This document shows, piece by piece, positions 8,107 through 31,667 of a stretch of DNA of 64,000 bases (its first letter is position 1; each line of letters starts with the position of its first letter). The stretch comes from an uncultured beta proteobacterium (lineage in GTDB: Bacteria; Pseudomonadota; Gammaproteobacteria; Burkholderiales; Gallionellaceae). The stretch covers positions 13,486-77,485 of the forward strand of contig CAWEYD010000015.1 of the NCBI GenBank assembly GCA_963813255.1. Reading direction: 5' to 3'. The notes under the pieces were generated by a model that was not told the DNA's origin, ran no database searches, and saw nothing but the letters and a program-made list of their open reading frames with translations. The position numbers were made by a program, and so were the translations under genes.

Positions 8107-8128
8107 TGCGGGGTATGGGTTCGCCCGC

Positions 8129-9593: not shown

Positions 9594-9708
9594 TGCGAGC
9601 AATCCTACGAGTTACGGCACAAAATACGGCAGATATCAGGCTGTCAGAGGTGGAGGATAACTTATAATCCCAGCACCACTTCTGTTTTTACCACGGGGCG
9701 ACTTCGTC

Positions 9709-11047: not shown

Positions 11048-11053
11048 GCGGCG

Positions 11054-11744
11054 TCAGTTCACCGACACCAGCGGCCGGATGAACTGGTAACCGGCCCCGC
11101 TGATGGCCTGCAGGGGATTTCGGCCGTCATCCAGTTTGGGCAGCTTGCGGCGCAGGCGGCTGATGCTGGCCTCAAGGGCGCGCGGGTCATAAACAGCGGG
11201 ATCTTTGCCCAATGCGCGTATCAGGGCGTCTCGGCTCACCTTGTGCTGAGGTTCTCCGGCAAGCGTTTCCAGCAGTGACATTTCCCAGTTGCTCAGCGGA
11301 ACGGGCGTGCTATCCGGCGGCTGCAATTCGGAGCGGGCCGGGAACAACTTCCAGGCTTGTGCAGGCATCGTCGTCGGTTGAAGGCGCAGCAGCAGATTGT
11401 CGATCACGGCCAGCATCTCGTTGAAGTCGATGGGCTTGACCAGATAGTCGTCTGCACCGGCGCGACGACATTCGAGGCGGTCGGCCGATTGGCTGCGCGC
11501 CGTGACCATGACGATGCCCATCGTCAATCCGAACCTTTCCCGCAAACGCCCCGCCAGCGCTGCGCCATTTTCGCCTGGCAGATTGAAGTCGAGCAGCACG
11601 ATCTCGGGGGCGAATTGCCGCAGGTTATGGTCCAGAGCGCGTCCCGCTCTCGACACCTCGCGCTTCATGCCCGGCGTAAACGAGGAAGGAAACGATCTCT
11701 TCCTGCTGGGCAAGGTCATCTTCTACAACGATAATGCGCGCCAT
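11054..11744 (-). CDS. OmpR-family response regulator, frameshifted near 11645
   Basis: MARIIVVEDD start joined to IVLLDFNLPGENG, GADDYLVKP and a winged-helix end ISRLRRKL...GAGYQF. Confidence 0.9.
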
Positions 11745-11772
11745 CTGTTTCGATTCATGAGGGTTTGCCGCA

Positions 11773-13739
11773 ATGCCCAATTTACGCATGCAACTGTCCG
11801 GTGTGCAAGCCTTGCTGAACCGGATGAATCTGCAAAGCCGTTTTTTGCTGATCATCGGAACGTCGTCGCTGCTGTTGGCTCTGGTGATCTGGGCGGTATT
11901 CAACAGCGTCACGTCAAGAGTGATCGACCGCATCGGCGTACGTTTCGCCGAGAAGCAGGTGCTGTATGACAAGGCGCGCACCTTGCAACCTTTGATACGC
12001 GAGGTGGCGCTGGCGCAGCACATGGCGGACAGCGCCATCATCAAACGGTGGGCGGCGAACGAGCGCGATCCCAAATTGAGTGCAGCCGCGTTGGCAGAAA
12101 TGGAGGAGTTCCGGAAGAACTTCCAGGACCGCAGTTTCTTCCTGGCGCTCGCCGGATCGGGGCATTACTACTTCAACGATGCCAGCGGCCAATATCTCGG
12201 CCGCGAGTTGCGTTATACGCTGCGCGATACCAACCCGGGTGACGCGTGGTTCTACGCCACCATCAGGAGCGCGCAGGATTACCACATCAATGTGGACCCG
12301 GACGCCAAGCTGGGCGTGACCAAGGTGTGGATCAACGTGCTGCTGCGCGATGGTGACAAGGTGCTGGGGGTGATCGGCACCGGGCTGGATCTGAGCGACT
12401 TCATCCGCAATGTGGCGGACATCAACCAGCCCGGTATCACCAATCTGTTCGTGGATCAGGGATGGGGCGATCCAGATCTACCGCGATGTGCAATACATCG
12501 ACTTTTCCAGCATCGCCAAATCCGCGGACAAACGCAGATCGATAGATCAATTGCTGGAACGTCCCAACGACCAGGCGTGGGTGCGTCAGGCTGTTGCCGC
12601 GGCCGATGCGGGCAGCAGGACCGTGCCTACCGGCCTGGTGCAGATCAAAGGCAAGCGCTATCTGGCCGGCGTGGCCGCCTTGCCGGAGGTGGGCTGGTAC
12701 GACGTGACACTGCTCGACCTCGACGTGCTGTTGCCGCAGCGCGACTTTCTTGACATGGCGCTGGCTGTGGGCGCGGCCGTGCTGGGGATATTGCTCGTGC
12801 TGGCGTTCACTTTGCACCGGCTTGTACTCAGGCCGGTGGCGAAACTGACCGATGCCGCGGCGCGTGTAGCGCAGGGGGATTTCGCTCATGCCGGGAATGG
12901 AGCATGGCAGGTGGCGAGGTCGGGCAGCTTGCCACACAGTTCAACTCGATGACCGATTCCATCCAGAAAACACAGAACTGGCTGGAGGAGGCTGTCGCCA
13001 AACATACCCGCGAACTGCTCGATGCCAAGCGCATGCTGGAGATCTCACTGGAACAGGAGAAGGCCGGGCGGGAGGCGCAGGTCAATCTGCTGGCCTTGAT
13101 GGCGCATGAGGTGCGCAGTCCGGTCGCCGTGATAGGCAACACCGCGCAGATGTTGAAGGCGCTGGCCGCCAGCGAAAAGCCGGAATGGCTGCCACGCATC
13201 GACAAGATCATGGTTGCGGTGCGCCAACTGGCGCAGTTGATGGACGAAGTCCTGGCGGACGATCGCATCGGCTTGAAGAGCAGGGGGCTGGAGCGGCAGC
13301 GCGGGGACCTCAATGTCTTCTGCAACGAACTGCGCTTGAGTCAGATGGCGTTGCGCGGAAAGAGCTATCCGTTTTGAGCCCTGTGCCGGCGATGCAACCA
13401 TCTATGCCGACTGGCAGCTCATCAAGATCGCCGTCTCCAATCTGATCGACAACGCGGAAAAGTATTCGCCATCCGGGAGCGAGATAAGCTTGCGCGTGCG
13501 ACGTGCCGAGCCGCACGCCATGTCCATCGAAGTGACACGATCAGGGGAAGGCCATTTCTCCGGAACTGCGGGAGCGTATCTTCGAAAAATTCATTCGCGG
13601 TCAGCATAACGAAGACGTGCAGGGAATCGGGCTCGGCCTTTATCTGGTCAACTGGATAGTCCGGCTGCACGGCGGACACGCCGAAGTCGTGGCAACGGAA
13701 GAGGGCAACACCTTCCGTCTGGTACTGCCGCAACGCTAG
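11773..13739 (+). CDS. Sensor histidine kinase (TM-Cache-like-TM-HAMP-HisKA-HATPase), several frameshifts
   Basis: Fragments 11773, 12410 and 12904 give two TMs, HAMP and H-box MAHEVRSP. Downstream DNA encodes NLIDNAEKYS and GIGLGLYLV, with a stop at 13739. Exact start uncertain. Confidence 0.87.
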
Positions 13740-14122
13740 ATCTGCAATGGCGATCTGAGCGGAAGATGCTGCGGCTGCCCGGCACCGGCCAATTGTCAGG
13801 ATTTGTCAGCCTTCCTCGAAAGTCCATTGATATGATTCGGCCCGAAAATGGGGCAATGAAAATCATTCTCTGTTGTCAGGCCATTATCCAAAATTCAATT
13901 TCCTCGCGCAGTGACCTGCTTTTGCCGTCGCCTTGACGGCAAGAGCGCGCGGAACTTGAAGCGTGAAGCCTGAAGCTGTGTCTGCGGTCGCAACCTCTTA
14001 ACAGTGTCTGCCGCCTTTCCGACACCGGTGACGATTTACTCTCAGATTTGAATGTGCCTGTCGCCAGACAACATCGTCTGGCTGACTATATATGTGCTCG
14101 TTTTGGTGGCGTGATTGATGTG

Positions 14123-14337: not shown

Positions 14338-15381
14338 GTGACATCCAACGGCAAAAAAATTGAGCTATTCACCCGCCTGGTCTGCGGGTGCGTATCCCTT
14401 TTGCTGCTATTTCCCGCAGTCCGGATGGGCGGTCGGTACCGCCGCAGGAACCGTCATCTCCAACGTCGCGACCGTGAGCTACGGACTGGGCGGCGTTGCC
14501 CAGCCGGCCATCACCAGCGCGGCGGCAACGATCAAGATCGACGAAGTCATACAGCCCACGCTGACCTGGCAGGACGGCACGCCGGTCATCGTCAACTCGC
14601 CGGGAACGAACGGTGCGCTGACCTTCCTGTTGACCAACAGCGGCAACGGCCAGGAAAGCTTCGGTTTGGTTCGCACCAATGGCCCGGCTCCGCTTCCCGC
14701 AGGGAATTACACGCCGCTGAACGGGACTGTCGGTTCGATGTATCTGGAAAACGGCTTGCTGGCCGGGTTCCAGGCTAGCGGCCCGAATGCGGACACGCTC
14801 TATGTGCCGGGGGTGAACGATCCCAAGCTGTCGGCGGATGCGGGGCAATTCATCTATGTGGTCAGCGATACGCCCGTGGTCACGCCGAACTACGCGCGGG
14901 GACGTATTGCTGCAAGTCGCATCCATGACCGCCGGCGCTAGCGGGTGCCGCACCGGGAACCAGTCTGGCCAATGCGGGGCAAGGCGGCGGCTTCGCCGTG
15001 GTGGGCAGTGGACGTGCCCAAGCGAGTGCGACCGGCAGCTATCTCAGCAACGGGCTGGGCTTTGCCATGACCAAGACCGTCACCAGCGTGCTCGATCGTA
15101 ATGGTACCGCGGTGCTGATGCCGGGCGCGGTGATGACCTATCAGATCCTCGCCACCCTGTCGGGTGTGGGCACTGCCAACAATCTTGTGATCGCCGATCC
15201 GCTGCCCGCCAATGTCACCTACGTGCCTGGCAGCATCATGGTGGATGGGGTCGCCAAGACCGACGTGGCCGATGCCGACAACGCCCAATTCATCAATGCC
15301 ACTCAAACCGTTTCTGTGTCGCTGGGGAATGTTGCCGCCCCGGCGAATGTCGTCATCACCTTGCGCGCAACGATCAATTGA
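14338..15381 (+). CDS. Secreted DUF11-domain protein (putative minor fibre subunit), frameshifted
   Basis: Signal peptide then GTAAGTVISNVATVSY. C-terminal domain MTKTV..PGAVMTY..IADPLP..VITLRATIN*. Pieces come from ORFs 14338, 14360 and 14998. Confidence 0.78.
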
Positions 15382-15392
15382 AGGAGGCTGTA

Positions 15393-15890
15393 ATGCGTAT
15401 TTCCCGTTTACTGTTCACCACCACGCTGCTCACCCTGCTGGGTGGATATTCGCTGGCTGCCCAGGCGGCAGACGGTGCCATCAAGGTGAGCAGCATCGCC
15501 GAAGTGGAAGTCGTCACGGTCGGCAAGGATGGCAACAAGACCGTCAAGCGCGCCTCTCCCGAAAAAGCCGTTCCCGGCACCGAGGTGATCTTTACCAACA
15601 GGTTCGAGAACGTCGGCAACAAGGCGGCGAGCGACATCGTAATCAACAATCCCGTCCCCAACGACACCACTTACAAGGCAGGCAGCGCCTTTGGCAAGGA
15701 CGCCGTCGTCGTCTTCTCCGCGGATGGTGGCAAGACCTTCGATACAGCCGACAAGCTGAAGGTCAAGGGCGCGGATGGAAGACAACGCAATGCGCTGCCT
15801 GGCGAATACACGCATATCCGCTGGACCTACAAGGGCCAACTGGCGCCAGGCAAATCCGGCGAAGTTGGCTTTAACGCGGTCATCAAATAA
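15393..15890 (+). CDS. Secreted single DUF11-like domain protein (putative chaperone or cap)
   Basis: AGGAGG RBS, signal peptide ..AAQA, AVPGTEVIFTNRFENVG..IVINNPVP..YKAGSA..HIRW..GEVGFNAVIK*. Confidence 0.85.
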   Translation: MRISRLLFTTTLLTLLGGYSLAAQAADGAIKVSSIAEVEVVTVGKDGNKTVKRASPEKAVPGTEVIFTNRFENVGNKAASDIVINNPVPNDTTYKAGSAFGKDAVVVFSADGGKTFDTADKLKVKGADGRQRNALPGEYTHIRWTYKGQLAPGKSGEVGFNAVIK

Positions 15891-16105
15891 CTGGGGCAGT
15901 CATGAACCACTCTTTTTCGAGTTATCCAGGGCGTTACGCAATGCCCGAAGCAATGACGGATCCGCCACGGATCTGTTTCCCTATTTCTGGGCACGGCCCG
16001 TTGAGCAGGAGGAACTTGCCATGAACAGAAAAAAATAAGCAGCAAGCATTTAGTAGTGACCAGTGGTTTAAGCAGTTTTTGGATGTGTTTAATAGGAGAA
16101 ATGAA

Positions 16106-17341
16106 ATGAAGCGAACTCATATGAGTAGAACTTCCAAACTCGCCGCCTTGTTGGCCGGTGCGACGATGTTTGGTCTGGTTACACAAAGCGCGTTGGCTGC
16201 CGGTACGGCATCCGGCACCTCCATCGGCAACCTGGCGACCCTGAGCTATACGGTCGGCGGCGTGACTCAGACCCCGATCGGTTCCTCGGCAACCGGCAAC
16301 ACAGTGGGGGCAGGTACCGCCACCACGTTCGTGGTCGACAACAAGGTCAATGTGACTGTCACTGAAGGCAACACGACGTTCACCACAGTCGTGCCCGGAC
16401 AACTGGCCGCTGTGACCACCTTTACCGTAACCAACGCCGGTAACACTACGCAAGACTTTGCCTTGGCCGCTGCGAACGCTGCAGCCGGTCAGACTCTGTT
16501 TGTCCCCCTGCTGACTGACAACTTCGATGCCACCAACGTGAAGGTGTTCGTTGAGTCGGGTGCAACTGCGGGTTTCCAGGCGGCGCAAGACACCGCGCTC
16601 TTTGTTGACGAACTGGCGGCTAACGGCACTGCGACGGTGTACGTCGTCACCGATATCCCGGTCGCGCAAATCAACAATGACGCTGCATTGGTCAGCCTGA
16701 CCGCCACCACCGAAGCTGGTGGTACTGCGGGCACGCAAGGTGCGGTAGTTGCCGAAACCACTACTGCCAACACTGCTGGTGTGGATGTGGTGTTCGCCGA
16801 CGCTGCGGGTTCCGATGAGATCGCAAGGGACGGCAAGCACTCCGCTCGCGACGCCTACAAGGTGGTTTCCGCCATCATCAGCGTAGCCAAGACGGTAGCG
16901 CTGCTGTGCGATCCGTTCAACGGCTCGACCAACCCGAAGAACATCCCGGGTGCGGCGGTACAGTACGCGATCACCATCGCCAACACCGGTGCGGCAGCAG
17001 CGACCTTGAGCCAAGTGACCGACAGCCTGAATGCGGCTCTGGCTTTTGACACCACACTGATCAGTGGTGCGGGCGCCGGTGCGAATTGCGTGGGCGGTGC
17101 AGGTACTCTGTCGGCCACGGGATTCGGTGCGGTGGCTGGCGTGGGTGCAACGACCTATGTTGCTCCCGGTCTGGCAGCGCAAGCGGTCACCGCAGGTGCC
17201 TCCGTAGCTGGCGCAGTGGGCGCGCAAACGGTCACCATCAACTACGGCACGTTGGCGAGCCCGGCGACTGCAGCTCTGGTGGGCGGTGTGTTGCCGGCAG
17301 GCGATTTCGTCACGGTTTATTTCAACGCGTTCGTGCAATAA
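16106..17341 (+). CDS. Secreted DUF11-domain protein (putative major fibre subunit)
   Basis: AGGAG RBS, signal peptide ..SALA, N-terminal GTASGTSIGNLATLSY, C-terminal VAKTV..DPFNGSTNPKNIPGA..VTDSL..YFNAFVQ*. Ala/Thr/Gly/Val-rich. Confidence 0.88.
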   Translation: MKRTHMSRTSKLAALLAGATMFGLVTQSALAAGTASGTSIGNLATLSYTVGGVTQTPIGSSATGNTVGAGTATTFVVDNKVNVTVTEGNTTFTTVVPGQLAAVTTFTVTNAGNTTQDFALAAANAAAGQTLFVPLLTDNFDATNVKVFVESGATAGFQAAQDTALFVDELAANGTATVYVVTDIPVAQINNDAALVSLTATTEAGGTAGTQGAVVAETTTANTAGVDVVFADAAGSDEIARDGKHSARDAYKVVSAIISVAKTVALLCDPFNGSTNPKNIPGAAVQYAITIANTGAAAATLSQVTDSLNAALAFDTTLISGAGAGANCVGGAGTLSATGFGAVAGVGATTYVAPGLAAQAVTAGASVAGAVGAQTVTINYGTLASPATAALVGGVLPAGDFVTVYFNAFVQ

Positions 17342-17356
17342 GCGACGAGATAAGCA

Positions 17357-20300
17357 GTGCTTGATTGTCTGACAATCAGTCCATCCCCGACCCGCACGGT
17401 ACGCCGTGCGGCAGGGGATGTGTTTGGCAGGTTGGCCGCAGGGCCAGCCCGCCTTTTGCTGCGCACTTCCCGTGTGCAGCAAAAGGCGTCTGTATTCGCA
17501 GCGGCGGTCGTGTTCAGTGCTGGCGCATGGGCGGTCACACCGGTCAATACGCCGATCACCAACACCGCCACCGCCACCTACAGCGTGGGTACAGGCACGG
17601 CACAGACCAATCTGTCGACCATCAGCACCTCGACGGTGAACACGGCAGCGTGCGTGACCTTGGGGGTGAAGGTCGATCTCATGCAATACATACCGCCCGG
17701 CCGTGCCGCACAGGCTCCGGCGAATGCCAGCTATGAAGTGGTGCATGCCAGTGCCTATTCCCCCAGCGGCGCACTCACCGGCCCGTTCACGCCTCTGGCC
17801 AACCCGACCCTGCTGGGAACGGCTATACCGGCCACTTTGCCGTCCAATCTGCTGCTGGCGCCGCTCAAGGATGCCGCCGGGAATACGGTCGCGACCTATT
17901 CGCGCAACGAGCCGATCTTCGTGCGCGTGGTCAGTTATGGCGCCAACACCAATGCCGCCGTGGCCGACACCATCGTGGTGACGCTGGCCACCAACCAGAG
18001 TGGCGACAGGGAAGTGCTGCAACTCACCGAGACTGGCCCTTCGACCGGGGTGTTCGTGGGGGCGATCTCGACCGTGTTCTCAGCGCTCGAGTCGGGTGCC
18101 ATCTCCAACGATGGGCACATCACCGTGACCCCCGACGAGGAGACCATCACCGGCATCTACATCCACACGGACTGCAATACCGGTGCGAGCATCGCCAGTT
18201 CCAGCAGCGGACTGATCGACCCTTACGGTGTGGTGTTCGATTCCGCAACGGGCGCACCGGTCAACGGCGCAAAGATCACCCTGATCGATACGGCGACCGG
18301 CTTGCCCGCTATCGTGTACTGCGACGACCAGGTCACCGTGTTGCCGCAGCCGCTCACCAGCGGCGCGCCCACCGCCTGCGATGCCACCATGGGCGCGGGG
18401 AGTTACCGCTTCCCGCAGGTCGCGGCAGGCAGTTACCGTCTGGTGGTCGTGCCGCCCGCAGGCCATGTGTTCCCCTCTGCCGTCGCATCAGCGAGCCTGC
18501 CGGCTGTAGTCGGCCTGCCAGCAGACGTACCTTCCGTCCTGGGCAATCCCGGCCTGACGCCCGGTGCCTCGTACGGTGGCGTATTCACGCTGTGGGGGCC
18601 GGCATTGAAAGTGGACATCCCGGTGGACTCGGGTTCGAACACGCTGACCATCCAGAAGACAGCGGACAAAGCCGTGGTCTCCACCGGCGAATATGTGCCT
18701 TACAACCTGAACATCAGCAACAACAGCGCCGTGGCCCTGACAGGCGTGCAGGTCGCCGACCATGTGCCGGTCGGTTTCCGCTACCAGAAGGGCTCGGTGA
18801 AGCTGGACGGGGTAGTCACCAACGAGCCTTTGATCTCGGCGGATGGCAGCACCCTGACCTTCACCCTGAATATGGCTGCAGCGGGCAAGGCGACGGTACG
18901 TTACGTACTGGAAGTGACCGCTGGTGCGCGCACCGGTACCGCGGAAAACACCGCGACCGCAGTGGGCGGCGTCACTTCCAACACCGGCCGCGCCAGCGTG
19001 CTGGTGCGCGAAGACTTGTACCGCAACAAGGCGATATTGATCGGCCGCGTGATCGATGTGTCGCGTCCGGACAACGAGGAGTTCGCCAACCCCAACGACA
19101 CGAAGAGCGTCTGCGACGACAAGGTGGACAACGATTTCCGCGGGCTGGCGAAAGCGCGCGTCGTGATGCAGGACGGCACTTATGTGCTGACCGACAGGGA
19201 AGGCCGCTGGCACATCGACAATCTGCGCGCCGGAACCCACGTGGTGCAGCTGGATCTGGATTCCCTGCCCAAGGATTATGAAGTGGTGGACTGCGAACAG
19301 AACGACCGCTTCGCCGGCCGCCTGTATTCGCAGTTCGTCAATCTGCAGGGCGGCAGCCTGTGGCGCGCCGATTTCCATGTGCGCAAGAAGCCGTCGCTTG
19401 CACGCCGCCTCACCCAGACTTTGAGCGCGCAAGCCGAAGTCGGACAACACCGTGGTGGGCTTGCGTGTGGAAGGCAGCACCGAAGTGACCGGCTACAGCG
19501 CCACCGTGATGCTGCCGGAATACGCGCTGTACGTGAATGGCAGCGCAAGGCTGAACGGCGAGCCGGTGGCCGATCCCGTCGTGGTCGGCAATGTGCTGAT
19601 CTTCCGCAGCCTGGCCAAGCCAGCCAAGTGGCAGGACCAGTACCAGTTCGAGTCGGAGAACATCGGGCCCAAGGCCACCATTCAATCCTCGGTGCGCTTC
19701 ACCCCGCCCGGACGTGCCGCACAGACCGCCCCCTTGGCGCAGATCGCCATGCTCAACCATGCTGCGACCAGCGGTCGACAGCTCGGCCGATGTGCTGGTC
19801 GAAGCCGCCGACAGCCGCCCCGCGAAAACGCCGATGGATGACGATCCGACCCGCCTGCTGGAAAAACTGCCCTACACCGAAACGTGGCTGGCTGCAGCGC
19901 AGCCGGGCGACGAATGGCTGCATCCGCAGTCCAGCTTCCACCCCAATCTGCCGGTGATGATGGTGGCGGTGAAGCACGACCCGAAACATAAATTGTCGCT
20001 GACGGTGAATGACGAGCCGGTCGATGCGCTGGCCTATCGACGGCATGCAACTGAACGCGACGCGCACGGTCGCCCTCAGCAACTGGCGCGGTGTGCAGGT
20101 GCATGAAGGCGACAACAAGTTCGAACTGGTGATACGCGATGCCGACGGCAAGGAGGTCAGCCGTGAAGTGCGCAGCGTCCACTACGCCTCGACCCCGGAC
20201 CACGTCGAACTGTTGCCGCTGCAATCGCGCCTGATCGCCGACGGCAAGACACGTTCCATCATCGCCGTGCGCTTCCTCGACAAGGACGGCGTGCCCGTGC

Positions 20301-23009
20301 GTCGCGGCATCAACGGCGAATTCCAGTTGAACGACCCCTATCGTTCGGCCCAGCGCCGCGAGGCTATCGAGCGCGAGCCGCTGGTCGGCAATGTGGGCGG
20401 CAAGGCACGTTTCGAGGTGGGGAACGACGGCATCGCCATGATCGAGCTGGAGCCCACCACGCAATCGGGCGAAGCCGTGCTCAGCTTCCAGTTCAACGAC
20501 ACCCGCATCCAGCTGCTGCGCGCTTGGCTGGAGCCTGGCCAGCGCGACTGGATACTGGTCGGTTTTGCCGAAGGCACGGCGGGACACAAGACGCTGTCCG
20601 GCAACATGCAGAACCTCAAGGCGACCGATGCGGACAACCAGTTGTTCGACGGCAACAAGCTGGCGTTCTACGCCAAGGGCAGTATCAAGGGCGATTACCT
20701 GCTGACCGTCGCCTACGACACCGCCAAGCAGACCAACGCCAAGCTGCTCAAGCAGGCAATCGATCCCACGCAGTATTACACCCTGTATGCCGATGCCACC
20801 CAGGCCCAGCATGACGCGGCCTCGTCCAGCAAGCTGTACCTGAAACTGGAGCGCAAGCAGTTCTATGCCATGTTCGGCGATTTCGACACCGGCCTCACCG
20901 TCACCGAGTTGTCGCGCTACAGCCGCACCGTGAACGGCGTGAAGAGCGAATACAAAGGCGAGCAACTGGGCTACAACGCCTTCGCCACCGTCACCGCGCA
21001 AGCATATGTGAAAGACGAGATCCAGGGCAACGGCACCTCCGGCCTATACAGGCTGTCGCGCAGCAACATCGTGATCAACTCCGACAAGATCCGCATCGAG
21101 ACCCGCGACCGCTTCCAGTCGCAGAACATCGTCAGCACGCACGTCCTGACCCGTTATCTGGATTACGACATCGATTACAACTTCGGCACCCTGAGCTTCC
21201 GCGAGCCCATCCAGAGCCGCGACGGCAGCTTCAACCCGACCTACATCGTGGCTGAATATGAATCGGCCGACCCGATAGACAGCAAGGCGACCTTCGGCGG
21301 ACGCGGCAGCTTCAAGCCCATCAAAGATCTCGAGATCGGCGCGACGGCGGTGCATGAGGGCACGGTCGGTGCGACCGGCAATCTGACCGGCTTCGATGCC
21401 ACCTACATGCTCAGCGAGCAGACCAAGGTGCGCGCAGAACTGGCCGGTACTGACCGCAACCGCATCGGCAACGTCGCCAGCGGCAACGCCTGGCTGGGCG
21501 AAGTGACCCACCACGAGGCAGCATGGGACAGCAAGGTGTATCTGCGCGAGCAGAGCGGCGGCTTCGGCTTCGGCCAGCAGGCCGCGTCGGAGATCGCCAC
21601 GCGCAAGGTGGGGTTCGATGGCCGCCTGAAGCTGGATGCCACTTCGCAGCTGAAGGGACAGGCCTACCAGCAGGACAACCTCACCACCGGGGCGAAGAAC
21701 ACCGTGCTGGAAGCGCGCGTCGACGAGAAGATCAGCGAAGCGTTGAACGCCTACTACGGCGCTCGCACCGCACGCGACACCAATGCCAATATCAACAGCC
21801 ACAGCGACCAGCTGCTGGCCGGTGCCGCCTATACTGCGCTGGACCGGAAGCTCACCCTGCGCGCCAGCGGGCGAGCTCAGTGCAGGCACGGCGGGCAGCG
21901 TCGCCATGCCGAACCGTTTGATCCTGGGTTCCGATTACAAGCTGACCGAACAGACCAAGGCCTTCGCCGAACAGGAATTCGCGCGCGGCGAAAAGATCTC
22001 CGCCAACACTACTCGCGTCGGTCTGCGTACCCAGCCCTGGATGGGCGCCGAGATGTCGGCTTCCGTGGCAGACAATTTCACCAACGACGCGGAGCGCCTG
22101 TACGCCAACATGGGCATGGTGCAGCGCTGGCAGATCACCGAGCACTGGCAGACCGATTTCAGCGTCGACCGCAGCCAGACCATGCGCAACACCGCGCCCC
22201 AGTTCAACCTGAACACGCCGCTCCCCTCCGGCACCACATCGCCTGCGGCAGGCTACACCGGCGACTTCACCGCCTTCGCGGTAGGCGGCGGCTATAACGA
22301 CAAACTGTGGAGCGGCAACGGCCGCGTCGAAGTGCGCAACGCCAGCTTGGGCAACCAGAAGAACCTGCTGCTCGGCATGCAGCGCAACCTGGAAGAAGGG
22401 CGCTCGATGGCCGTGGGCTACACCATGCGCCAGACGGACAGTCCGCTCGTCAATACCCGCAACAGCGATCTGCGCCTGTCGTTCGCGCATCGCCCGCATG
22501 ACAGCGAATGGGTCTGGCTGGATCGCGCCGACTTCATCACCCAGACATCGCAAGCGGCCGGCAGCACCCTCAAGGGCGACAAGCTGGTGAACAACTTCAA
22601 CGCCAACTGGATGCCCAGCCGCCATACCCAGGTCTCGCTGCAATACGGTTCCAAGTACGTGCTGGACACGATCGACAACACCGACTACAGCGGTTACACC
22701 GACCTCATCGGCGCGGAAGTGCGCCACGACCTGAACCAGGATTGGGATGTGGGCGCGTTCGGCTCGGTGCTGCGCTCGGTGAATGCCGGCGTGCGCAGCT
22801 ACGGTGTGGGCGCGTCGCTCGGTTACAAGCTGATGGAGAACATGTGGGTCTCCGGCGGCTACAACCTGCGCGGCATGGATGATCGCGATTTCGCCAATGC
22901 GGCCTATCGCGCAAAAGGACCGTTCATCACACTGCGCATGAAGGTCGACCAGGACACCTTCGGGTTGAACGATGGCGGCCAACGCAGCCGTCCGTTGAGT
23001 GGAGAGTAA
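17357..23009 (+). CDS. Large (~1,880 aa) outer-membrane protein: Ig-like and DUF11 domains plus C-terminal beta-barrel; 4 frameshifts
   Basis: Reconstructed from ORFs 17357, 19452, 19714, 20009 and 21783. Contains DPYGVVFDS (SdrD/CnaB-like), a full DUF11 (IQKTADK..VADHVP..AENTAT) and amphipathic beta-strand C-terminal ~700 aa ending ..GPFITLRMKVDQ.. Start uncertain. Confidence 0.8.
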
Positions 23010-23016
23010 AGTCTTT

Positions 23017-26000
23017 ATGAGCACCGCACACAAAATCAGGCAAACCGTTTTCGCTTCGGCACTGGCACTGCTGTTCGTGGCGCCGACTGCTCGCGCCGAC
23101 AGCGTGGGCCAGGTGCAGACTACCAAATACTTCGCGCCGGAAACGGTGGCGATGATCAAGCAGCGTGTGATCGATGTCGCGGCCGGCGTGCCGGGCGCGA
23201 CACTGGGCTTCAAGCAGGGCGATACGGTCAGCTACATCATCCAGTTCACGCCGATCGCCAACGGCTCCAACATCGGCGCCGGCGGCTATATCACCGACTA
23301 CATCCCCGCGGGCACACAGGTCACCGGTGCGTGGTTCGTTCAGCCGGATGGCATGGGCGGCTTCTATCAGACCACGCCGCCGGCACCGGCACAGATGGCG
23401 GACGGGTTCGGGGTGGGCGGTGCCGGTGCCTACACCGCAAACTGGACATCCGACCCTTACACCATCAGCACCTGCACCGCGGCTGCGCTGACGCTGGCCA
23501 AATGTACCGGCAACCTGGCACAACTCTACGCGGATACGGGGATCTTCTATTCCACCGACACGCGCACTGCAGTGTTCGTGGATCCCAGCATCGACGGTCG
23601 TACCTGCGCAATGGTCGGCACCGACCGGCAACGGCTATAACGTGTGCCCGACACGCGGCGCCCAACTGGTTCCCTTGATGGGGGGCTTGGTCACCACCTG
23701 TGCGGCTGGCGGATCTTCCACGCACAACTACTGGGATGCAGCCATGACCAGTGCCTATGGCACGTCTGCCGCATTCCTGACCACCCTCGGCACGCTGCCA
23801 CGCAATGCGGGCGTCGCTGCCGTCGACACGAATGGTGCGGGCTTAGCCCCCTTTCAATGCGGGTTCCCCTGTGGCCGGACCGGATACCGGATACCAGCTC
23901 GACTACACCGGCAACATCGGCCCCTGGCAGCGCATCAGCTATCCCGGCTCGATGGTGGGATCCAATGCCTTCACGCTGACCAATCCGGCCAAGGTCGCAG
24001 GAACCAACACCGTGTTGGCAACCTCGACTTCGGCTGGTACCAGCTTCCCGCTCCCGGCATCCACCAATGCCGTGCGCTGGGCGGCAGGGCGTCTGGTGGT
24101 GGGCATGCAAAGCTACGTCAAGATCAACCTCGTGCTGACGTGCAACGCCCCCGGCCAAGCGGCCTGGTCAATAACTCCGAAGTGTTCGGTGGTGACGGAA
24201 GTCCGGAGAGCACGACCGCTTCGACCGGCAACCGCGACAGCGCATGGGTGTATCACGTCCCCAGCGTGGCCAGCAACGTCTCGACCTTGTACATCCTGAA
24301 GGAAGTGGTCTGTGTCTATGACGCGACCGGGTACTTGCGTGCCTAACAACGGCGCGAACCTGCCGACTACCGGCACTCCCATAACGGTGGGTCCCAAGGT
24401 GCGTTACCGCATCGCATACATCAACACCAACAACGGTACGCAGCACAACGTGACGATCTGCGACCAGCTGCCCGCCACCGCAACTGCCATCGCGTTCGCC
24501 ACCGCGGTCAGCCAGATCAGTGCGACCCCCAACATCGGCACACCCACCAGCCCGGCTGCGGCGGCATGCGGATTCGCGGCCGGCGGTACGACGTTCAATT
24601 ACCCCACGATCCCGGTGATCGCGGGCGGCGGTGCCGGGATAATCGAATACGACGTGCAACTGCCCGTGCTCACGGCGGGTACCAGCATCTCGAATGCCGC
24701 GAAAGCAGTCAGTACCGAGATTCCGGCCGGCGTGACCTCGTATGCCCCGTCCAATGTGGTCGCTTCTGCTGCGGCCAATCTGATCATCAACAAGACTGTG
24801 TCGCCGACCACGCCGAACAAAGGTGACACGGTGACCTATACCGTGACCGTCTCCAATACCGGGAGTACGGCTGCGAGCCTGACCACCTTGGTCGATACCC
24901 TGCCGGGGTTAGCCACCGCAGTGGTGGCCAACCAGATACCCAGCCGCTTCAACTATGTGGCAACGAGTTCCCTCACCGTCAATGGAGCGCCCCTGTCCGG
25001 TGTGTCATCAGTGGTGACGCCACCCTTGACGCCGGCGACGATCAACAATGAGGTCGTTACCTGGACCTTTCCATCTGGCACGACCATTCCGGCTGGTGGG
25101 CAGTTGGTGGTGACATTCAGCGCGACGGCAGGCGGACCGTTGGCAACCAATTTGATGGTGTATGGGACAGCCTATAGCAACACGGCGACCATCAACTGTT
25201 CTGCCGCCTGTGTGCTCACACCGGTCGCACCGAATACCGCTACTTCCAAGACCACAGGCTTGACTGCTCCGGTGACACTGACCATCCCGCTCCTGCAGCT
25301 GACCAAGACCATCGATTGCGTATTCGTTGGCGGAGTCTGTACCTCAGGGTCTTACGTGACGGGCAGCAACATCCCGCCCCTGGCCATGCTGCGCTACAAG
25401 ATCGTCTATACGAATCCGGAAGCGGTCGCGCAGACCATTACACTGACCGACACCCTGCCTGCATCGGCCACGGCAGCGGGTAACCTGTATGTCGCCAGCG
25501 GCCCAGACATCCGACCCAGCACGCCCGTGTTGTCGGTGAACACGGCGGCCGCAGGCGCAGCACCTGGGCCGGATGTGGCGCTGACGACGATCGCGGCCAG
25601 CTCGTTGGTGAGCTTTACACCAGTAAGCTTGGCGGGCGGTAGTTCCGGTACCTTGTACATGGATGTGCAGACCAATGCGGCGGCGGCAGCAATAGTTACC
25701 AACACCGCCTCCATCAACAGCGCCGAGCGCATTGCTGCCGGCGGCGCCGGTCTTACAGCGGTGACCAGCCTGGTGAGCGCCACTGCGGCAGCCTTGACCA
25801 TCACCAAGACAGCTAACGTTTCCACGGTTGCACCGGGCGGGGCGGTGATCTACACCATCACCGTGACCAATCCCACTGCAGCGGCCGTGACGCTCACTAA
25901 CCTGGTCGATACTTTGCCCAAACCTTTGCCCAATGTGGCCGGACGGACGATACAGTGCGGTACAACGGCCGCGACCTGTCTGGCGGTGACTACGGTGACG

Positions 26001-29000
26001 CTGAATGGTGTTGCAGTTGTACCCACGATGACGTGGACGGCGGCAACTGCCACCGTCGGACAGAAGAACACATGGACGTTCCCGGCTGCGGCCAAAACTT
26101 TGAACGCCGGTGCGACACTGGTACTGACCTTTACCGCCACCTACAGCGCGACAGTGTTGCCCGGCAATACCTACCTCAATGCCGCCACGCTGACATATAC
26201 GGGGGGCACGGCGGCGACAGGGCCAGTGGCTCCGGTGACCGTGCCTTACAACTCCATCAGCGTGAGCAAGTCGGTGGTCACGCCCAATCCGGCTTCCATC
26301 GCGCCGAACAGCCCGGTGACCTACGCCATCACCGTCGCCAACACGGGCACGACACCGGTCCCGGTGACCAGCGTGGTGGATACATTACCGACAGCACCCT
26401 TGGGCACGGGAGCGATCGCCTACACTTCGACCACATCGGTGATGAATGGTGTGACACCGCTGGCCGTGGTCCCAACCTTGCTGCCGGCTACCGCCGTTGC
26501 AGGTACGGCGCAAGCGGTGACCTGGACACTTCCTGCGGCGACAACGATCCCGGTGGGCGGCTCCATCGTCATCACTTTCGTGGCGACCTATGGCGCTGTT
26601 CCGACTGGCGTGACTTATTACAACGATGTGAAGGTCAATTACACCGGAGGGCAGACAGCCAGCGTCACCATGCAGAACCTGGCACCGGTCACCGTGCCCG
26701 CGATCTCGAAGATCACCAAGACCATCGATTGCGTGTACGTGGGATTGGTCTGCACTCCCGGCAGCTACGTGGACGGGACGCCTATCCCGGTGAACGCCAA
26801 ACTGGGCTACAAGATCGTCTACGAGAACCTGTCCGCACTGGCAGCCAGCGGCATCACAATCACCGACATCCTGCCGACCCAGACCGCCGCCAATCCGATC
26901 AGCAACCTGATCGTGAACGGCGTGGCTGCGGTGGCACCCGCCGCGGCAGCGGGCGGTGCGACCGCGACCTTGCTGACCGCCGGGACGCTGACCGCAGCGA
27001 ATACGCCAGGTTCGACCGGCACCATCACCTTCGATGTACAGACAACGGCGACCGTGGGCGCAGGGGTGACCAACACCGGCAAGATGGTGAGCACTCAGGA
27101 CCCGATGGGCGCGACCAGCTCCGCTACGGCAGCGGCGGCAGGCGGCAACCTGACGGTGACCAAGGCGGTCACGTCGGGTACCTCTTCCACGGTGGCGCAG
27201 GGCGGCATCGCGTCGTACACCATCACCGTCGTCAACAACGGATCGGCGGCGGCCACCCTGAACACTCTGGCGGACACCTTGCCCGGCACGCCCGCTGTTG
27301 CACCGGGCACCACCAGCCGCTTCACTTACACTGCGACTGGCGCGATCACCCTCAACGGCGCACCTGTCGTTCCAGTCTATACGGCGGTGGTGACTGCGCC
27401 TGCAGCACCCGCCACGCTGAACAAAGAAATAGTAAGTTGGACATTCACAGGCGGTGTGGTCATCCCCGCCGGACAGACTTTCACGCTCACCTTTACGGCC
27501 ACGGTGGGAACGCTGGTGTCCAAAGGCTTGGCCGCACCCGGTGCGACCTACTACAACGATGTGACGGCGAATTACTCCGGCGGCGCATTCACCAGTGCGA
27601 TGGCGAATGGACAGGCCCCGGTGCTGGTACCGTTCTATACACTGACGATGAACAAGACCATCGATTGCGTGTATGACACTTTGGGGGTCTGCCAGCCATA
27701 CACCGGTATGCCTGTCCCGCCCAGTGCGAAACTGCGTTACCTGTTGTCGTACAGCAATCTGTCTTCATTGGCGCAAACCGTGACCGTCAAAGATACCCTG
27801 CCGGCATCGGCCACGGCGGCGGGCAACCTGTATGTGGGTAGCGGCCCGGATGTGCGCCCGAGCGTGCCGGCCTTGTCGGTGAATGCCGCTGCAGCCGGTG
27901 TCGCGCGCGGGCCGGATGTGGCGCTCACCACCCCCATCACACCTGCCACTCCCGTTGCCATGACTGCAGTCAGCTTGCCCGCGAACAGCTCCGGCAGTCT
28001 GTACATCGATGTGCAGACCAATGCGCTGGCGGGTACCTCCGTCGCCAACTGTGCCTCAATCAGTACCATTGCGACTGACACCTGTGCCACCGTGGGTTCG
28101 CTATCCATGGTGAGCAGCACCGCGACTGCGAGCGTGCAGAACGTGGCTGTGCTGAGCATCAGCAAGACCACCAGTACGCCCAGCGTCGTGCCAGGCGGGA
28201 CGGCGACCTACACCATCAGCATCACCAACACCGGCACTGCCCCCACCTCTACGCTCAAGGTGTACGACTTCCTGCCTTATAGCGGTTTTGCGGTGGATGC
28301 GACCAAGCGGCTCGTCTATGTGGCCAATTCCTCAACCTTTAGCGCAGGCTTGCCGGTGCCGACCATCACCACGTCAGTGGCACCGACCATCCCGCCCTAT
28401 GCCAGCAACATGAACCAGCAACAAGTGTTGTGGGACTTCGGCAACTACGCATTGGCAGTCGGCGCGACGGTGAGCATCACCTTCAATGCGACGGTGGGTT
28501 CCGCCATGCCGGCGGTGAGTTACTACAACAGCGCACGCTACGAGTACACCAGCGGCGGCATCTTCTTCAACGGCAACCTCAATACCGCTGCCCTGATCAC
28601 CGTGACAAATGCACAGCCCTCACTGATGTTCCTCAAGACGGTCATGGTGCATTCCGACCCGGTGAACGGAACGACCAATCCGAAATACATTCCGGGCGCG
28701 CTGGCGGGCTATACCCTGGTGGCGACCAACTCCGGGACAGGCTCGGTGGACAACAACTCGCTGGTGATCACCGATGCTGTTCCCGCCAACACAGCGCTGT
28801 TCGTGAAGGACCTTGGGGCTGCCGGCTCGGGGCCGGTATTGTTCACCCAGGGGGCGACCAGCAGCACGCTGAGCTACACCTACACTGCGCTGGGCGATGC
28901 GGCGGATGACATCGACTTCTACGGCGGTGCGACGCCGGCATGGGGCTACGTGCCCGTTCCGGGTGCGGACGGTTGCGACCCGCTGGTCAGCAACATCCGT

Positions 29001-29084
29001 ATCAATCCCAAGGGCACGTTTGTCGGTAATCCCACAGCGCCCAGCCCCAGTTTCAATTTGAATTTCCGTGTTTGTGTGAAGTAA
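23017..29084 (+). CDS. Giant (~2,020 aa) DUF11-repeat adhesin, frameshifted in the 5' part
   Basis: Signal peptide ..TARA. About 11 domains with K-T..PG..Y.I...N..D-T-L-P..N-x-A pattern. Pieces come from ORFs 22999, 23642, 23871 and 24312. Confidence 0.85.
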
Positions 29085-29105
29085 TTACTAAGCGAGGCAT
29101 CCACC

Positions 29106-30053
29106 ATGAATAAGCTGACCCTCTCACTTCTGACCGCTGCCCTGTTCGGCTGCATTGCATCCGCAGCCGCAGACGAGTTGCTGCCCAAGGATCTGCAGAA
29201 CATCGAAGCCCTGCAGCGCCGGGCCGACCAGATGGCATTCGGCGAGACAGGCTCGGACAATTATTACCTCGCCAAGGCGCGCACCTGGCTGGATATGGCG
29301 CTGAGCGAATACCACCAGAAGGACACTACTGGCACCGTACTCGCGGCGACCGCGCAGGCCGCGGGATTGCTCGATGCCCTGGAAAAGAACCAGACCGACA
29401 TCAGCCGCGATACGCCCAAGACCATCCAGGGCAGCGAAGTGGTGCGCACCGACCTGTGGGAAAAGATCGCCACGCTGAAGAGCCAGCCGAAATTCTCCTG
29501 TGGACAGACGCAGTTGGCCGAGGCCGAGGTGTATCTGGTGTGGACCGGGCATGAGAAGGTGGAATCCGGCTGGGCGCATGCGGAATCCTATGCACGCAGT
29601 GCAGAGAACCTGATCTATGAGGCGCAGGTCAAGATCGACAACTGTGCCCGTGTGCCCGAACAGCGCAAGACAGAGAAGTTCTCGCTCTCCGGCGATGCAC
29701 TGTTCGTCTTCGGCGGTGACAAGCTGACCAGCGGCGCGGAAGCCAGCCTGGACAAGCTGGCCGAGAACATCAAGGGCTGGACCTCCATCGAGCTGGTGGA
29801 CCTCGTCGGGCATACCGACCGCCTGCGCAGCGATCGAAACGAGAAGAAGAACAAGGAACTCTCTGTGCACCGCGCAGAGCGCATCAAACAATATCTGGTG
29901 AGCAAGGGCATCCCCGCAGACAAGATCCAGACGCACGGCGCCGGCTCGACCAAGCCCGTCGTGACTTGCCCAAGCAAGCTGGACAGGGAAGCGCTGGTGA
30001 GCTGCCTGCAACCGAACCGCCGCGTGGAGATCACGCTGCGCGGGGAGAAATAA
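29106..30053 (+). CDS. OmpA-C domain periplasmic peptidoglycan-binding protein
   Basis: Signal peptide, helical N-terminal domain, LSGDALF..GHTDR..N..LS..RA..C..C LQPNRRVEI. Confidence 0.9.
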   Translation: MNKLTLSLLTAALFGCIASAAADELLPKDLQNIEALQRRADQMAFGETGSDNYYLAKARTWLDMALSEYHQKDTTGTVLAATAQAAGLLDALEKNQTDISRDTPKTIQGSEVVRTDLWEKIATLKSQPKFSCGQTQLAEAEVYLVWTGHEKVESGWAHAESYARSAENLIYEAQVKIDNCARVPEQRKTEKFSLSGDALFVFGGDKLTSGAEASLDKLAENIKGWTSIELVDLVGHTDRLRSDRNEKKNKELSVHRAERIKQYLVSKGIPADKIQTHGAGSTKPVVTCPSKLDREALVSCLQPNRRVEITLRGEK

Positions 30054-30362
30054 CAACAAACACTCATCGATCAATGGCCAAACTGGGTCATTCCGGACAG
30101 CCCTCTTCCAACTTTCCCCCTGAGGAGGAAAGAGTAATCGCCTCCTCTCCCTCCAGGAGATAACCAGCGACTTGCCCGCTTGCGGGCTTAGTCGAATGGC
30201 TAGTAGTTCCATCAGGATTGAGGTGAGGGTCAGCCGGAATCCGGAATCAAAGGGGGCTGCGTCTCAATACTGCAGGCTAGGCTATGAACAGTTTCAGCTG
30301 CCTCATTTCCCCATAGACACTACAATCCCTCCACCTCGAACTTCACACCAAGAAGGATGCGC

Positions 30363-31667
30363 ATGAGATTCAGTTCGTTCCTGGCGTTGACGCTGTTCTG
30401 CGCCAACGCTTCGCTGGCAGCATCTGCCGAAGACATATCCGAATTACCTACGCCGTCCTCTTCCGCCCAACGTCTCTATTCGCAAGCCAAGGCCGATATC
30501 GTGCAGTTGCGTTCGCTGTTGAAGAACGGGCGCACGCAGTCGTCGGTGGGTTCGGGCTTTCTGATCGGAAAGGGCAATCTGGTGGTGACGAATTACCACG
30601 TGATGTCGCAGATCGCGCTGGAGCCGGATACCTATGTGGGCGAGTATGTAGATACTTACGGCAAGCGCGGGGCGGTGGAGTTGCTGGCGGTGGATGTGCT
30701 GCACGATCTGGCGGTGGTGCGCATCGAGCGCAACGGCGGCGGGTTTTTCAATGTGCCGGACAAGTTGCCAGAGCTGACACAGGGGCAGTATCTGTATTCG
30801 CTTGGCAATCCGCTCGATCTCGGCTTCGCAATCTCGGAAGGTGCCTATAACGGCGTCATCAAGCGCAGCTTCTATGGTGAGCTGATGTTCACCGGTCCCA
30901 TCAACGCGGGGATGAGCGGCGGCCCCGGGCTGACGGTGGATGGCCGCGTGGCGGGGGTGAACGTCTCGCACCGGCTGGATGGCGAACTGGTGAGTTTTCT
31001 GGTGCCGGTGCGTTATGTGCGCGACCTGTTGAAGAAGATCGCCGCGCAGAAAGAGACCCCCAAGGATTTCAAGCTGGTGGTGGGGCAGCAGTTGCTGGAG
31101 CATCAGGCGACGATGATGTCCAAGCTGGCTGAGACGCCGCTGACCTTCAAGGAATTGAATCCGTATCGCGTGCCGGTGTGGGAGTCGGATCAGGTGCGCT
31201 GCTGGGGTAGCGCCAACAGCAAGCAGAGCAAGTCGTATGCGTTCGATCAGGTGAACTGCGCGATGGAGTCGGCGCTGTATGTGTCCAACCAGACGCAGAC
31301 CGGGCATATCTCCATCCATCACAAGCTGCTGCAAAGCAGTGAGTTGGGGGAACTGCGTTTTGCTGCGTTGGCGAGCCGGATGTTCAACAACCAGGGCATC
31401 GGCGGACACAAGGACTCGCGCTACACGCCGCCGCGCTGTGTCGAGCAGTTCGTGAGCAACGGCAGACTGCCGATGCGCGCTGTGCTGTGCACGCGCGCCT
31501 ATCGCAAGTTCGCCGGGCTGTACGATTTCACGCTGCTCATCGCCAGCACGGATAGCGGGCAGACGAGTCTGCAGAGCCGCGTGGACATCAGCGGGGTGGA
31601 CTACGAGAACGGTTTGCGCATTTCGCGCATCTTCCTTGAGAAGACGGATCGGGAGGTGAAGCCATGA
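30363..31667 (+). CDS. Secreted trypsin-like (S1) serine protease with uncharacterised C-terminal domain
   Basis: Catalytic triad motifs TNYHV, HDLAV and GMSGGP; signal peptide; no PDZ domain. Confidence 0.9.
   Translation: MRFSSFLALTLFCANASLAASAEDISELPTPSSSAQRLYSQAKADIVQLRSLLKNGRTQSSVGSGFLIGKGNLVVTNYHVMSQIALEPDTYVGEYVDTYGKRGAVELLAVDVLHDLAVVRIERNGGGFFNVPDKLPELTQGQYLYSLGNPLDLGFAISEGAYNGVIKRSFYGELMFTGPINAGMSGGPGLTVDGRVAGVNVSHRLDGELVSFLVPVRYVRDLLKKIAAQKETPKDFKLVVGQQLLEHQATMMSKLAETPLTFKELNPYRVPVWESDQVRCWGSANSKQSKSYAFDQVNCAMESALYVSNQTQTGHISIHHKLLQSSELGELRFAALASRMFNNQGIGGHKDSRYTPPRCVEQFVSNGRLPMRAVLCTRAYRKFAGLYDFTLLIASTDSGQTSLQSRVDISGVDYENGLRISRIFLEKTDREVKP

Follow-up and report, generated by a model that had tools for sequence, protein, structure and literature searches.

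The locus raises the question of how secreted proteins that each carry only part of a self-crosslinking adhesin domain are put together at the cell surface. In the window, the 64,000-nucleotide stretch of DNA analysed here, an iron-oxidiser-like betaproteobacterium encodes six adjacent genes in which this known domain, CLIPPER (DUF11), is halved across separate secreted proteins (Table 1). Since the halves lie on different proteins, these probably plug together head to tail, and probably covalently. We consider it somewhat probable that the genes form a conserved operon for a surface adhesin chain in which one part completes the CLIPPER domain of another and a Lys-Asn lock closes each joint.

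Table 1. Features of the six-gene locus, with positions counted along the window
Feature	Position	Strand	Size or residues	Composition, key codons and ends
Subunit A	14338..15381	+	~350 aa	signal peptide, donor hairpin, middle Ig-like part, C-terminal cut-short CLIPPER acceptor; frameshifts near 14415 and 14908-14959
Subunit A, donor hairpin	14435-14482			GTAAGTVISNVATVSY; starts at 14435; Asn codon 14462-14464
Subunit A, acceptor				Lys codon 15073-15075; Asp codon 15196-15198; C-terminus ..VITLRATIN* at 15381
Small secreted protein	15378..15890	+	170 aa	one CLIPPER-like domain; cut-short end ..GFNAVIK*
Subunit B	16106..17341	+	411 aa	intact; signal peptide
Subunit B, donor hairpin	16202-16249		residues 32-72	GTASGTSIGNLATLSY; Asn42 codon 16229-16231
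Subunit B, Ig-like domain D1			residues ~78-255	
Subunit B, acceptor domain			residues 256-411	Lys262 codon 16889-16891; Asp306 codon 17021-17023; C-terminus ..VYFNAFVQ* at 17341
Giant outer-membrane protein	17357..23009	+	~1880 aa	frameshifts near 19435, 19771, 20036 and 21870
Giant, donor hairpin	17534-17581 onward			follows signal peptide; VTPVNTPITNTATATY; Asn69 codon 17561-17563
Giant, middle				Ig-like domains, including a CarboxypepD_reg domain and one complete CLIPPER domain
Giant, C-terminal barrel	roughly 20560-23006		~30 or more strands	
Tip adhesin	22999..29084	+	~2000 aa	signal peptide, tandem complete CLIPPER-type repeats, acceptor-only C-terminal domain, no donor hairpin; frameshifts near 23605 and within 23850-24331
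Tip adhesin, end domain	28587-29081			Lys codon 28635-28637; Asp codon 28773-28775; C-terminus ..LNFRVCVK* at 29084
OmpA-family protein	29106..30053	+		lipobox-like signal peptide (..LFGC..); Pfam OmpA E 1.1e-15

The internal repeats of the adhesin carry the Lys, the Asp (within xDTLP) and a late Asn all on one chain, as a preliminary description of this DNA had noted, with coordinates and peptides that match. The same agreement extends to its two further claims, namely that (i) the C-termini of A, B and the adhesin are a CLIPPER/DUF11 domain with Lys and Asp that ends before the Asn strand, an exact match, and (ii) A, B and the giant outer-membrane protein carry the missing segment directly after the signal peptide, where coordinates and peptides again correspond. 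The missing piece is present at these N-termini with its Asn, but takes the form of a two-strand hairpin and not of a single strand. An HMM derived from the complete internal repeats comprises 155 positions, with the Asn at 127; in related loci, all 61 C-terminal CLIPPER-like domains end at positions 95-115 (53 of them at 113-115), and the N-terminal hairpins align to positions ~113-152. Within the first 110 residues of the open reading frames of the loci the hairpin motif is found 77 times, against two occurrences in the other 120,299 residues, a roughly 100-fold enrichment near the N-terminus. In A, B, the tip and the small protein, the terminal domain is not a complete nine-strand domain and lacks the Asn segment.

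Profile comparisons place these parts in one family. Against PF01345 (cut-off 24.6 bits) the adhesin scores 87.5 bits and the giant 36.9 bits, and against TIGR01451 (cut-off 24 bits) the giant reaches 39.9 bits, the small protein 32.3 bits and the C-terminus of A 31.7 bits; the acceptor of B stays under the cut-offs of both profiles (16.6 and 20.8 bits), and hhalign relates it to the tip end domain with a probability of 98.8%. The sole internal CLIPPER domain of the giant is complete, with its own Lys, Asp and Asn, and its N-terminal hairpin is therefore an orphan; an acceptor is absent, making the protein a donor only. As orphan halves, the giant hairpin and the tip acceptor can be completed only by another chain.

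The polarity noted in the preliminary description recurs in a survey of 45 related loci, in which A and B are donor and acceptor, the giant is donor only and the tip is acceptor only, and the five-part set is found in Beta-, Gamma- and Alphaproteobacteria, Zixibacteria, Nitrospirae and Sulfurovum. The Asn, Lys and Asp are likewise retained in homologues, being invariant in alignments of 80 to 130 sequences from several phyla: N42, K262 and D306 in the B family (130 sequences), K17 and D63 in the tip end-domain family (126 sequences) and N69 in the giant family (80 sequences); the A family, with 27 sequences, shows no variation at K259 and D299. The giant family holds 3405 clusters at 50% identity, and B has more than 1000 relatives. 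Longer giants have extra internal repeats, with the hairpin still at the start. A search for natural fusions of two subunits at the joint came out weakly negative, with no B-like region in longer proteins and no B-like fusion at the N-terminus of 150 giants, which counts slightly against joining between chains.

Because A and B carry both halves on one polypeptide, as neither the tip nor the giant does, the hairpin of each could complete its own C-terminal domain, which would be circularly permuted, with a domain inserted and an internal isopeptide bond. Joining between chains would in that case be confined to the tip and the giant, a two-part system that displays cargo covalently on an anchor in the outer membrane, with A and B being closed accessories. 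RrgA D2 gives a natural example, its domain being in two pieces that are stapled within the same chain and have other domains inserted (PMC5333627), and the numbers of donors and acceptors balance on this arrangement too. In the AlphaFold2 model of B as a single chain, the hairpin is predicted with confidence (pLDDT 87-96) and the domains take up a fixed arrangement (overall pTM 0.77); the model fits a docking of the hairpin into its own end domain and is ambiguous between docking in the chain and between chains. Contacts that are naturally made between chains can appear as in-chain signals in single-chain models. By Foldseek and VIA-align the B model returns only generic Ig-like matches (integrin legs, macroglobulin domains, antigen I/II), and the matches of its D1 and acceptor are generic Ig-like sandwiches that do not distinguish the two kinds of docking; neither the B profile nor the adhesin matched any solved structure by sequence. 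A three-chain prediction (tip end domain, giant residues 60-285 and, as partner, mature B) scored no lower with an unrelated protein as the second chain, so that it weighs neither for nor against binding.

The pattern of residue loss argues against in-chain closure. In four A-type subunits the hairpin Asn is replaced (by Gly in L007, Ser in L009, Gly in L020 and Thr in L066) and their own Lys and Asp are kept, a retention that is old, since L007 and L009 share only 44% identity; reciprocally, L024 and L026 have Glu in place of Lys and keep their own Asn, and none of 123 subunits has lost both. Hairpin and acceptor of the same protein thus evolve uncoupled, in few cases that amount to ~5 independent events. 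In addition, closure within the chain would leave A and B without a role, although they are the most conserved members of the operon, and the A/B hairpins are homologous to the orphan hairpin of the giant, as the A/B acceptors are to the orphan acceptor of the tip. The conserved dead-acceptor protein described below also implies that free hairpins exist. We therefore regard in-chain closure as unlikely, and joining between chains as the preferred reading.

The small secreted protein encoded between A and B has a homologue in 43 related loci; it lacks a donor hairpin, and its catalytic set is dead. Of 44 sequences, only 18 have K at the Lys site and 37 have N at the Asp site, so the CLIPPER fold tolerates loss of the catalytic residues, which some ordinary CLIPPER domains lack as well (PMC12617251). 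The probable role of the small protein is to hold hairpins non-covalently, as chaperone or cap, which could act in the periplasm; alternatively it could be a non-covalent terminator. This conserved fourth cut-short protein had been missed or understated in the preliminary description.

The dead domain also bears on a reading in which chains complement one another but form no covalent lock; Lys, Asp and Asn would then serve folding or packing, and the joints would be as in chaperone-usher pili. In favour of such joints, some subunits that lack Asn or Lys are retained, BsaA oligomers with a mutated Asn are still stable (PMC11580942), and some CLIPPER domains lack the isopeptide bond (PMC12617251). 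Yet the three residues are invariant over 80-130 diverse sequences per family, the fold does not require them, as the small protein indicates, and the identical Lys-Asp-Asn triad forms an isopeptide bond in the solved CLIPPER domain 9IFR from Acinetobacter silvestris (PMC12617251), so that we consider a purely non-covalent chain quite improbable and a covalent one the better account.

The barrel and the end domain invite a third reading. A model of the C-terminal 1000 aa of a homologous giant (pLDDT 83, pTM 0.80), when compared with solved barrels, ranks FimD at the top (Z 17.1, rmsd 10.6 Å, 388 aligned), only 2-3 Z units above unrelated porins, as unrelated barrels reach Z 14.6 and 13-14; Foldseek TM-scores stay below 0.3 for all barrels, with the type IX translocon SprA among the weak matches. 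The end domain could be mainly a secretion or sorting tag like the Ig-like C-terminal domain of type IX substrates, with the giant as translocon and the hairpins serving targeting. The very large barrel of the giant and the weak SprA match suit this proposal, as does the presence of the end domain on many unrelated cargos (CLIPPER repeats, Ice_binding, DUF7933 and G8), always at the extreme C-terminus; 120 of 120 relatives of the adhesin end domain terminate at the identical residue, whatever the cargo. It leaves unexplained, however, why the cut falls exactly before the Asn strand and why the missing hairpin, with an invariant Asn, opens three other proteins of the operon, and no type IX secretion components are seen in the operon. 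We judge a tag function very unlikely.

On the preferred reading of a covalent chain, we infer insertion between chains, the covalent bond, the order of the subunits and the outer-membrane route as follows. The nine-strand CLIPPER domain would be divided after its seventh strand into (i) a seven-strand piece with the reactive Lys and the catalytic Asp, forming the C-terminus of the tip adhesin, A and B, and (ii) a two-strand hairpin with the reactive Asn, forming the N-terminus of A, B and the giant once the signal peptide is cleaved. All parts would be exported by the Sec pathway, after which the hairpin of one protein would enter the unfinished end domain of the protein ahead, restoring a complete domain and uniting Asn, Lys and Asp, and a Lys-Asn isopeptide bond would then arise without an enzyme. 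The predicted product is a chain running from the tip through A/B to the giant, with a barrel of ~30 or more strands at its end and with exchangeable tips; its N-to-C layout would be that of a single-chain CLIPPER-stalk adhesin. Such chemistry between chains is feasible, as separated halves of RrgA D2 ligate spontaneously (PMC5333627) and BsaA combines strand exchange with an Asn-Lys lock (PMC11580942). The giant barrel may double as export pore. The OmpA-family protein may tie the system to peptidoglycan; its gene is not beside the core genes in the related loci L001 and L003 that were examined.

The preliminary description had read the locus as a self-cross-linking fibre with a polymerised shaft. 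Its split-domain logic, the polarity and the conservation of Asn, Lys and Asp across phyla stand, and the long polymerised shaft is unsupported: with three donors and three covalent acceptors in this genome, a defined chain of tip, A/B and giant fits the parts list equally well. Its statement that sortase, usher and PapD are absent from the operon agrees with our searches, which found none of them in the bacterium's own genome (81% complete) either. No Usher (PF00577) match was obtained for the intact giant of L003 at E values up to 1, and a PapD-like chaperone (PF00345) was found neither in the operon nor in the bacterium's own genome. No LPXTG sorting signal is present at the ends ..RATIN*, ..NAFVQ* and ..RVCVK*, which are cut-short domains instead.

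Frameshifts break four of the six operon genes in the window; that of A near 14415, which lies in the signal peptide, had likewise been missed or understated. Genes upstream have similar frame breaks, ~8 in 7.5 kb, and a 653-aa protein at 11773-13736 is spread over five frames, which rules out gene decay specific to the operon. Being present across the whole window, the frameshifts are probably assembly errors.

If the joints are made between chains and are covalent, the locus would represent a new route to surface appendages in bacteria with two membranes, one that needs no sortase, usher-chaperone pair or ATP and for which one halved domain suffices. It would assign a function to the very large uncharacterised family of giants and B relatives, and offer protein engineers naturally occurring, orthogonal ligation pairs made of split domains. 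Among the carriers are iron and sulfur oxidisers, methylotrophs and sphingomonads, for which attachment to minerals, ice or plant surfaces is relevant; Ramlibacter paludis XY19 and Sphingomonas sp. CROZ-RG-20F-R02-07 are carriers in culture. For the broader claim of a widespread, undescribed Gram-negative class of fibre or display system, a natural Tag/Catcher, the considerations for and against are in our view evenly balanced; in that class split CLIPPER domains would, by ligation without an enzyme, weld exchangeable tips such as adhesins and ice-binding-like domains via adaptors to a giant barrel of ~30 or more strands that is last subunit, anchor and perhaps export pore, with the dead acceptor as chaperone.

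Literature searches yielded no published description of such a system. The novelty put forward in the preliminary description narrows in one respect, since the principle of exchange plus lock is already published for BsaA (PMC11580942), and holds for the fold, the multi-protein design and the giant barrel. BsaA, a TasA-family protein of Clostridium perfringens, polymerises by donor-strand exchange, and Glu56 then catalyses an Asn35-Lys74 lock (PMC11580942). In both systems an N-terminal Asn segment inserts into the sheet of a neighbour, at least as predicted here, and the Asn-Lys lock, also predicted in the present case, involves an acidic acceptor residue and no sortase; the corresponding residue set is conserved, with a donor Asn (N42, N69) and an acceptor Lys and acidic residue (K262 and D306; K17 and D63; K259 and D299). 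On the other hand, BsaA has a TasA-like fold without CLIPPER and forms a Gram-positive homopolymer of one protein, without an outer-membrane component or exchangeable tips, whereas Pfam and NCBIfam give only CLIPPER-type and Ig-like families in the present operon, with no TasA-like fold. The archaeal thread of Saci_0406 also combines donor-strand complementation with a proposed covalent inter-subunit bond and no sortase, the bond joining the N-terminal amine to Asn57 of subunit n+2, but has another fold and is a homopolymer with no outer membrane (PMC9715654).

Chaperone-usher pili (type 1, P and archaic Csu/CupE) are similarly Gram-negative and built from Sec-exported Ig-like subunits with an unfinished fold that the N-terminal extension of the next subunit completes, as sequence complementarity and the orphan halves suggest here; they share a tip adhesin without donor, and an operon that also encodes a large outer-membrane barrel and a small Ig-like helper, periplasmic in the pili and putatively so here. 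They differ in that the present operon has no Usher or PapD match and its donor is a two-strand hairpin with a reactive Asn, while its helper is CLIPPER-like and resembles the acceptor, not a strand donor, and its barrel protein would be the last subunit.

The closest relatives by sequence are the CLIPPER/DUF11 (PF01345) adhesins, with the same domain family by Pfam and TIGR01451 matches, the same order of Lys, Asp and Asn, and the same N-to-C layout of adhesive head, CLIPPER stalk and membrane anchor; the internal repeats of the adhesin and the internal domain of the giant are ordinary complete members. The published bond connects residues of a single domain on a single chain, whereas the present terminal domains end after strand 7 and leave the Asn hairpin to the N-termini of other proteins; split domains and the present operon are not described in the published survey (PMC12617251). 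The design finally resembles RrgA D2 'Jo/In' and SpyTag/SpyCatcher, two-piece isopeptide domains that reassemble and ligate spontaneously (PMC5333627); their separate pieces are engineered, whereas the split described here is natural, lies between gene products and is conserved across phyla.

Six genes share one orientation on the + strand between positions 14338 and 30053, and the families matched in them by Pfam and NCBIfam comprise only CLIPPER/DUF11-type and other Ig-like domains, with OmpA in the last gene. DUF11 (PF01345) has been named CLIPPER since 2025, and crystal structure 9IFR displays an in-chain isopeptide bond, Lys715-Asn806, with Asp748 as the catalyst (PMC12617251). The coordinates and peptides of the preliminary description, which reported C-terminal domains cut short before the Asn strand and N-terminal segments supplying it, proved exact on re-check in every case, and the Lys, Asp and late Asn of the adhesin internal repeats all lie within one chain. 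An HMM of 155 positions, derived from complete internal repeats and with the Asn at 127, was applied to every ORF of the related loci. In 61/61 CLIPPER-like domains located at a protein C-terminus, the match ends between positions 95 and 115, and in 53 of these at 113-115, just past the strand that comes before the Asn strand. The N-terminal donor segments correspond to positions ~113-152. The donor is therefore a hairpin made of the domain's last two strands, not a single strand, and its motif is enriched about 100-fold within residues 1-110 of the locus ORFs (77 matches) relative to the remainder (2). Each subunit resembles one slice of a tandem repeat array that has been divided out of register.

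The gene set recurs across 45 fetched loci from Beta-, Gamma- and Alphaproteobacteria, Zixibacteria, Nitrospirae and Sulfurovum, two of them from cultured strains (Ramlibacter paludis XY19 and a Sphingomonas), and preserves the polarity of donors and acceptors first noted in the window. The residues at stake are invariant: N42, K262 and D306 in B (n=130), which has more than 1000 relatives; K259 and D299 in A (n=27); N69 in the giant outer-membrane protein (n=80); and K17 and D63 in the tip end domain (n=126). The latter is a homologue of the B acceptor (hhalign probability 98.8%), Lys matching Lys and Asp matching Asp, and 120/120 of its relatives terminate exactly where the adhesin of the window does. 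The cargo it carries varies, including CLIPPER repeats, Ice_binding, DUF7933, G8 and others. Small tips of ~380 aa, in L001 and many other relatives, combine an Ice_binding-like domain (PF11999) with the acceptor end domain, suggesting ice or surface binding as one displayed function.

The single internal CLIPPER domain of the giant is complete, Lys, Asp and Asn included, which leaves the N-terminal hairpin unpaired within that chain. For the last 1000 residues of the homologue in L003, which is intact, a confident fold is predicted (pLDDT 83, pTM 0.80), modelled as Ig-like domains followed by ~30 or more long strands. A very highly conserved short-strand stretch early in the barrel region (residues ~1000-1125, model residues 284-409), with motifs GDGTSGLYRLSR and ETRDRF, could represent a plug-like domain, as in ushers. 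Foldseek returns only weak matches to the large barrels SlpA, MtrB, TonB-dependent receptors, LptD, PapC and SprA (TM-scores below 0.3). In VIA-align the top place goes to the FimD usher (Z 17.1, rmsd 10.6 Å, 388 residues aligned), which leads unrelated porins by only 2-3 Z units. The family comprises 3405 clusters at 50% identity (E up to 0.001).

Since the giant has a hairpin without acceptor and the tips an acceptor without hairpin, at least one joint must lie between chains if the half-domains are ever completed. A and B each carry both halves, and their hairpin might instead dock into the end domain of the same chain, as a two-piece domain can do in RrgA D2 (PMC5333627); the AlphaFold2 model of B (own hairpin pLDDT 87-96, pTM 0.77) fits such docking, but models of this type are unable to tell contacts within a chain from those between homologous partner chains. 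Among 123 A/B-type subunits, 108 hold Asn, Lys and Asp. Against closure within one chain, four A-type proteins have lost the hairpin Asn while keeping their own Lys and Asp (those of L007 and L009 share only 44% identity), L024 and L026 have Glu for the acceptor Lys while keeping their Asn, and 0/123 have lost both. Because these losses are uncoupled, the hairpin and acceptor of one protein seem, in this small sample, to serve different joints; in-chain closure, the main rival, is unlikely, and is kept at that weight because the sample is small.

The small protein, found in 43 loci, retains the Lys in only 18/44 sequences, and Asn replaces Asp in 37/44. Its residues mark it as a catalytically dead acceptor, which would hold hairpins non-covalently. 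The L007 and L009 small proteins have Asp (VIDNP) where most have Asn.

Frame breaks were mapped against the intact operon of L004, a metagenome-assembled Sideroxydans genome (protein identity 78-92%). Upstream genes syntenic with L004 are broken equally often, about once per kb, and a 653-aa HisKA-domain protein is spread over five frames. Operon-specific decay is rejected on this ground, and the breaks look like error-prone assembly. The whole assembly is probably unpolished, which makes pseudogene calls anywhere in this genome suspect.

Features of the operon and of related loci (L-numbers, with positions within each locus); frame breaks by comparison with L004
Feature	Position	Strand	Remark	Frame breaks
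Upstream syntenic genes	6188-13740			~7307, 8558, 11644
HisKA-domain protein	11773-13736			
Subunit A	14338-15381	+	donor + acceptor (45 loci)	near 14415; 14908-14959
Small secreted protein	15378-15890	+	acceptor-like end only (43 loci)	
Subunit B	16106-17341	+	411 aa, intact; donor + acceptor (45 loci)	
Giant outer-membrane protein	17357-23009	+	~1880 aa; donor only (45 loci)	near 19435, 19771, 20036, 21870
Conserved stretch of giant	~20860-21235			
Tip adhesin	22999-29084	+	~2000 aa; downstream tip often present, acceptor only (45 loci)	near 23605; within 23850-24331
OmpA-family lipoprotein	29106-30053	+		
Trypsin_2 protease, FHA-domain protein	30357-32647	+		
Asn-less A-type subunits	L007:2609-3745; L009:8047-9264; L020:8279-9334; L066:6-989		Gly, Ser or Thr for Asn	
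Longer A-like subunit	L024:2399-3838; L026:7794-9245		479-483 aa; Cys pair just after hairpin Asn strand (..LLQCNFC..)	
Small Ice_binding-like tip	L001:16383-17516			
Chaperone-usher cluster	L003:18857-21239	-	SCPU, Usher, PapC_C	

A secreted trypsin-like protease and an FHA-domain membrane protein adjoin the operon downstream; neither was found next to the core genes of L001 or L003. The operon was described as lacking sortase, usher and PapD genes, which holds and extends to the whole genome (2.6 Mb, 81% complete), where none was found; one tip, three donors and three covalent acceptors are present. In L003, a classical chaperone-usher cluster adjoins the split-CLIPPER operon, so the two systems coexist and are distinct.

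The simplest and most likely reading is that tip, A/B and giant join head to tail in a chain, in which each hairpin would complete the domain of the protein ahead, placing Asn beside Lys and Asp, a proximity that would lead to a spontaneous bond. Nothing found supports a long homopolymeric shaft. The literature search returned no paper on this operon, on any splitting of CLIPPER domains or on the family of the giant barrel; the principle itself is already known, with strand exchange and spontaneous locking published for BsaA, which establishes feasibility in a natural fibre (PMC11580942), and in a different form for archaeal threads (PMC9715654), and with the chemical feasibility of ligating separated RrgA D2 halves established (PMC5333627). 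From N to C, the proposed chain is laid out like a CLIPPER adhesin made as one polypeptide and anchored at its C-terminus, and by this analogy the system reads as a split, modular adhesin.
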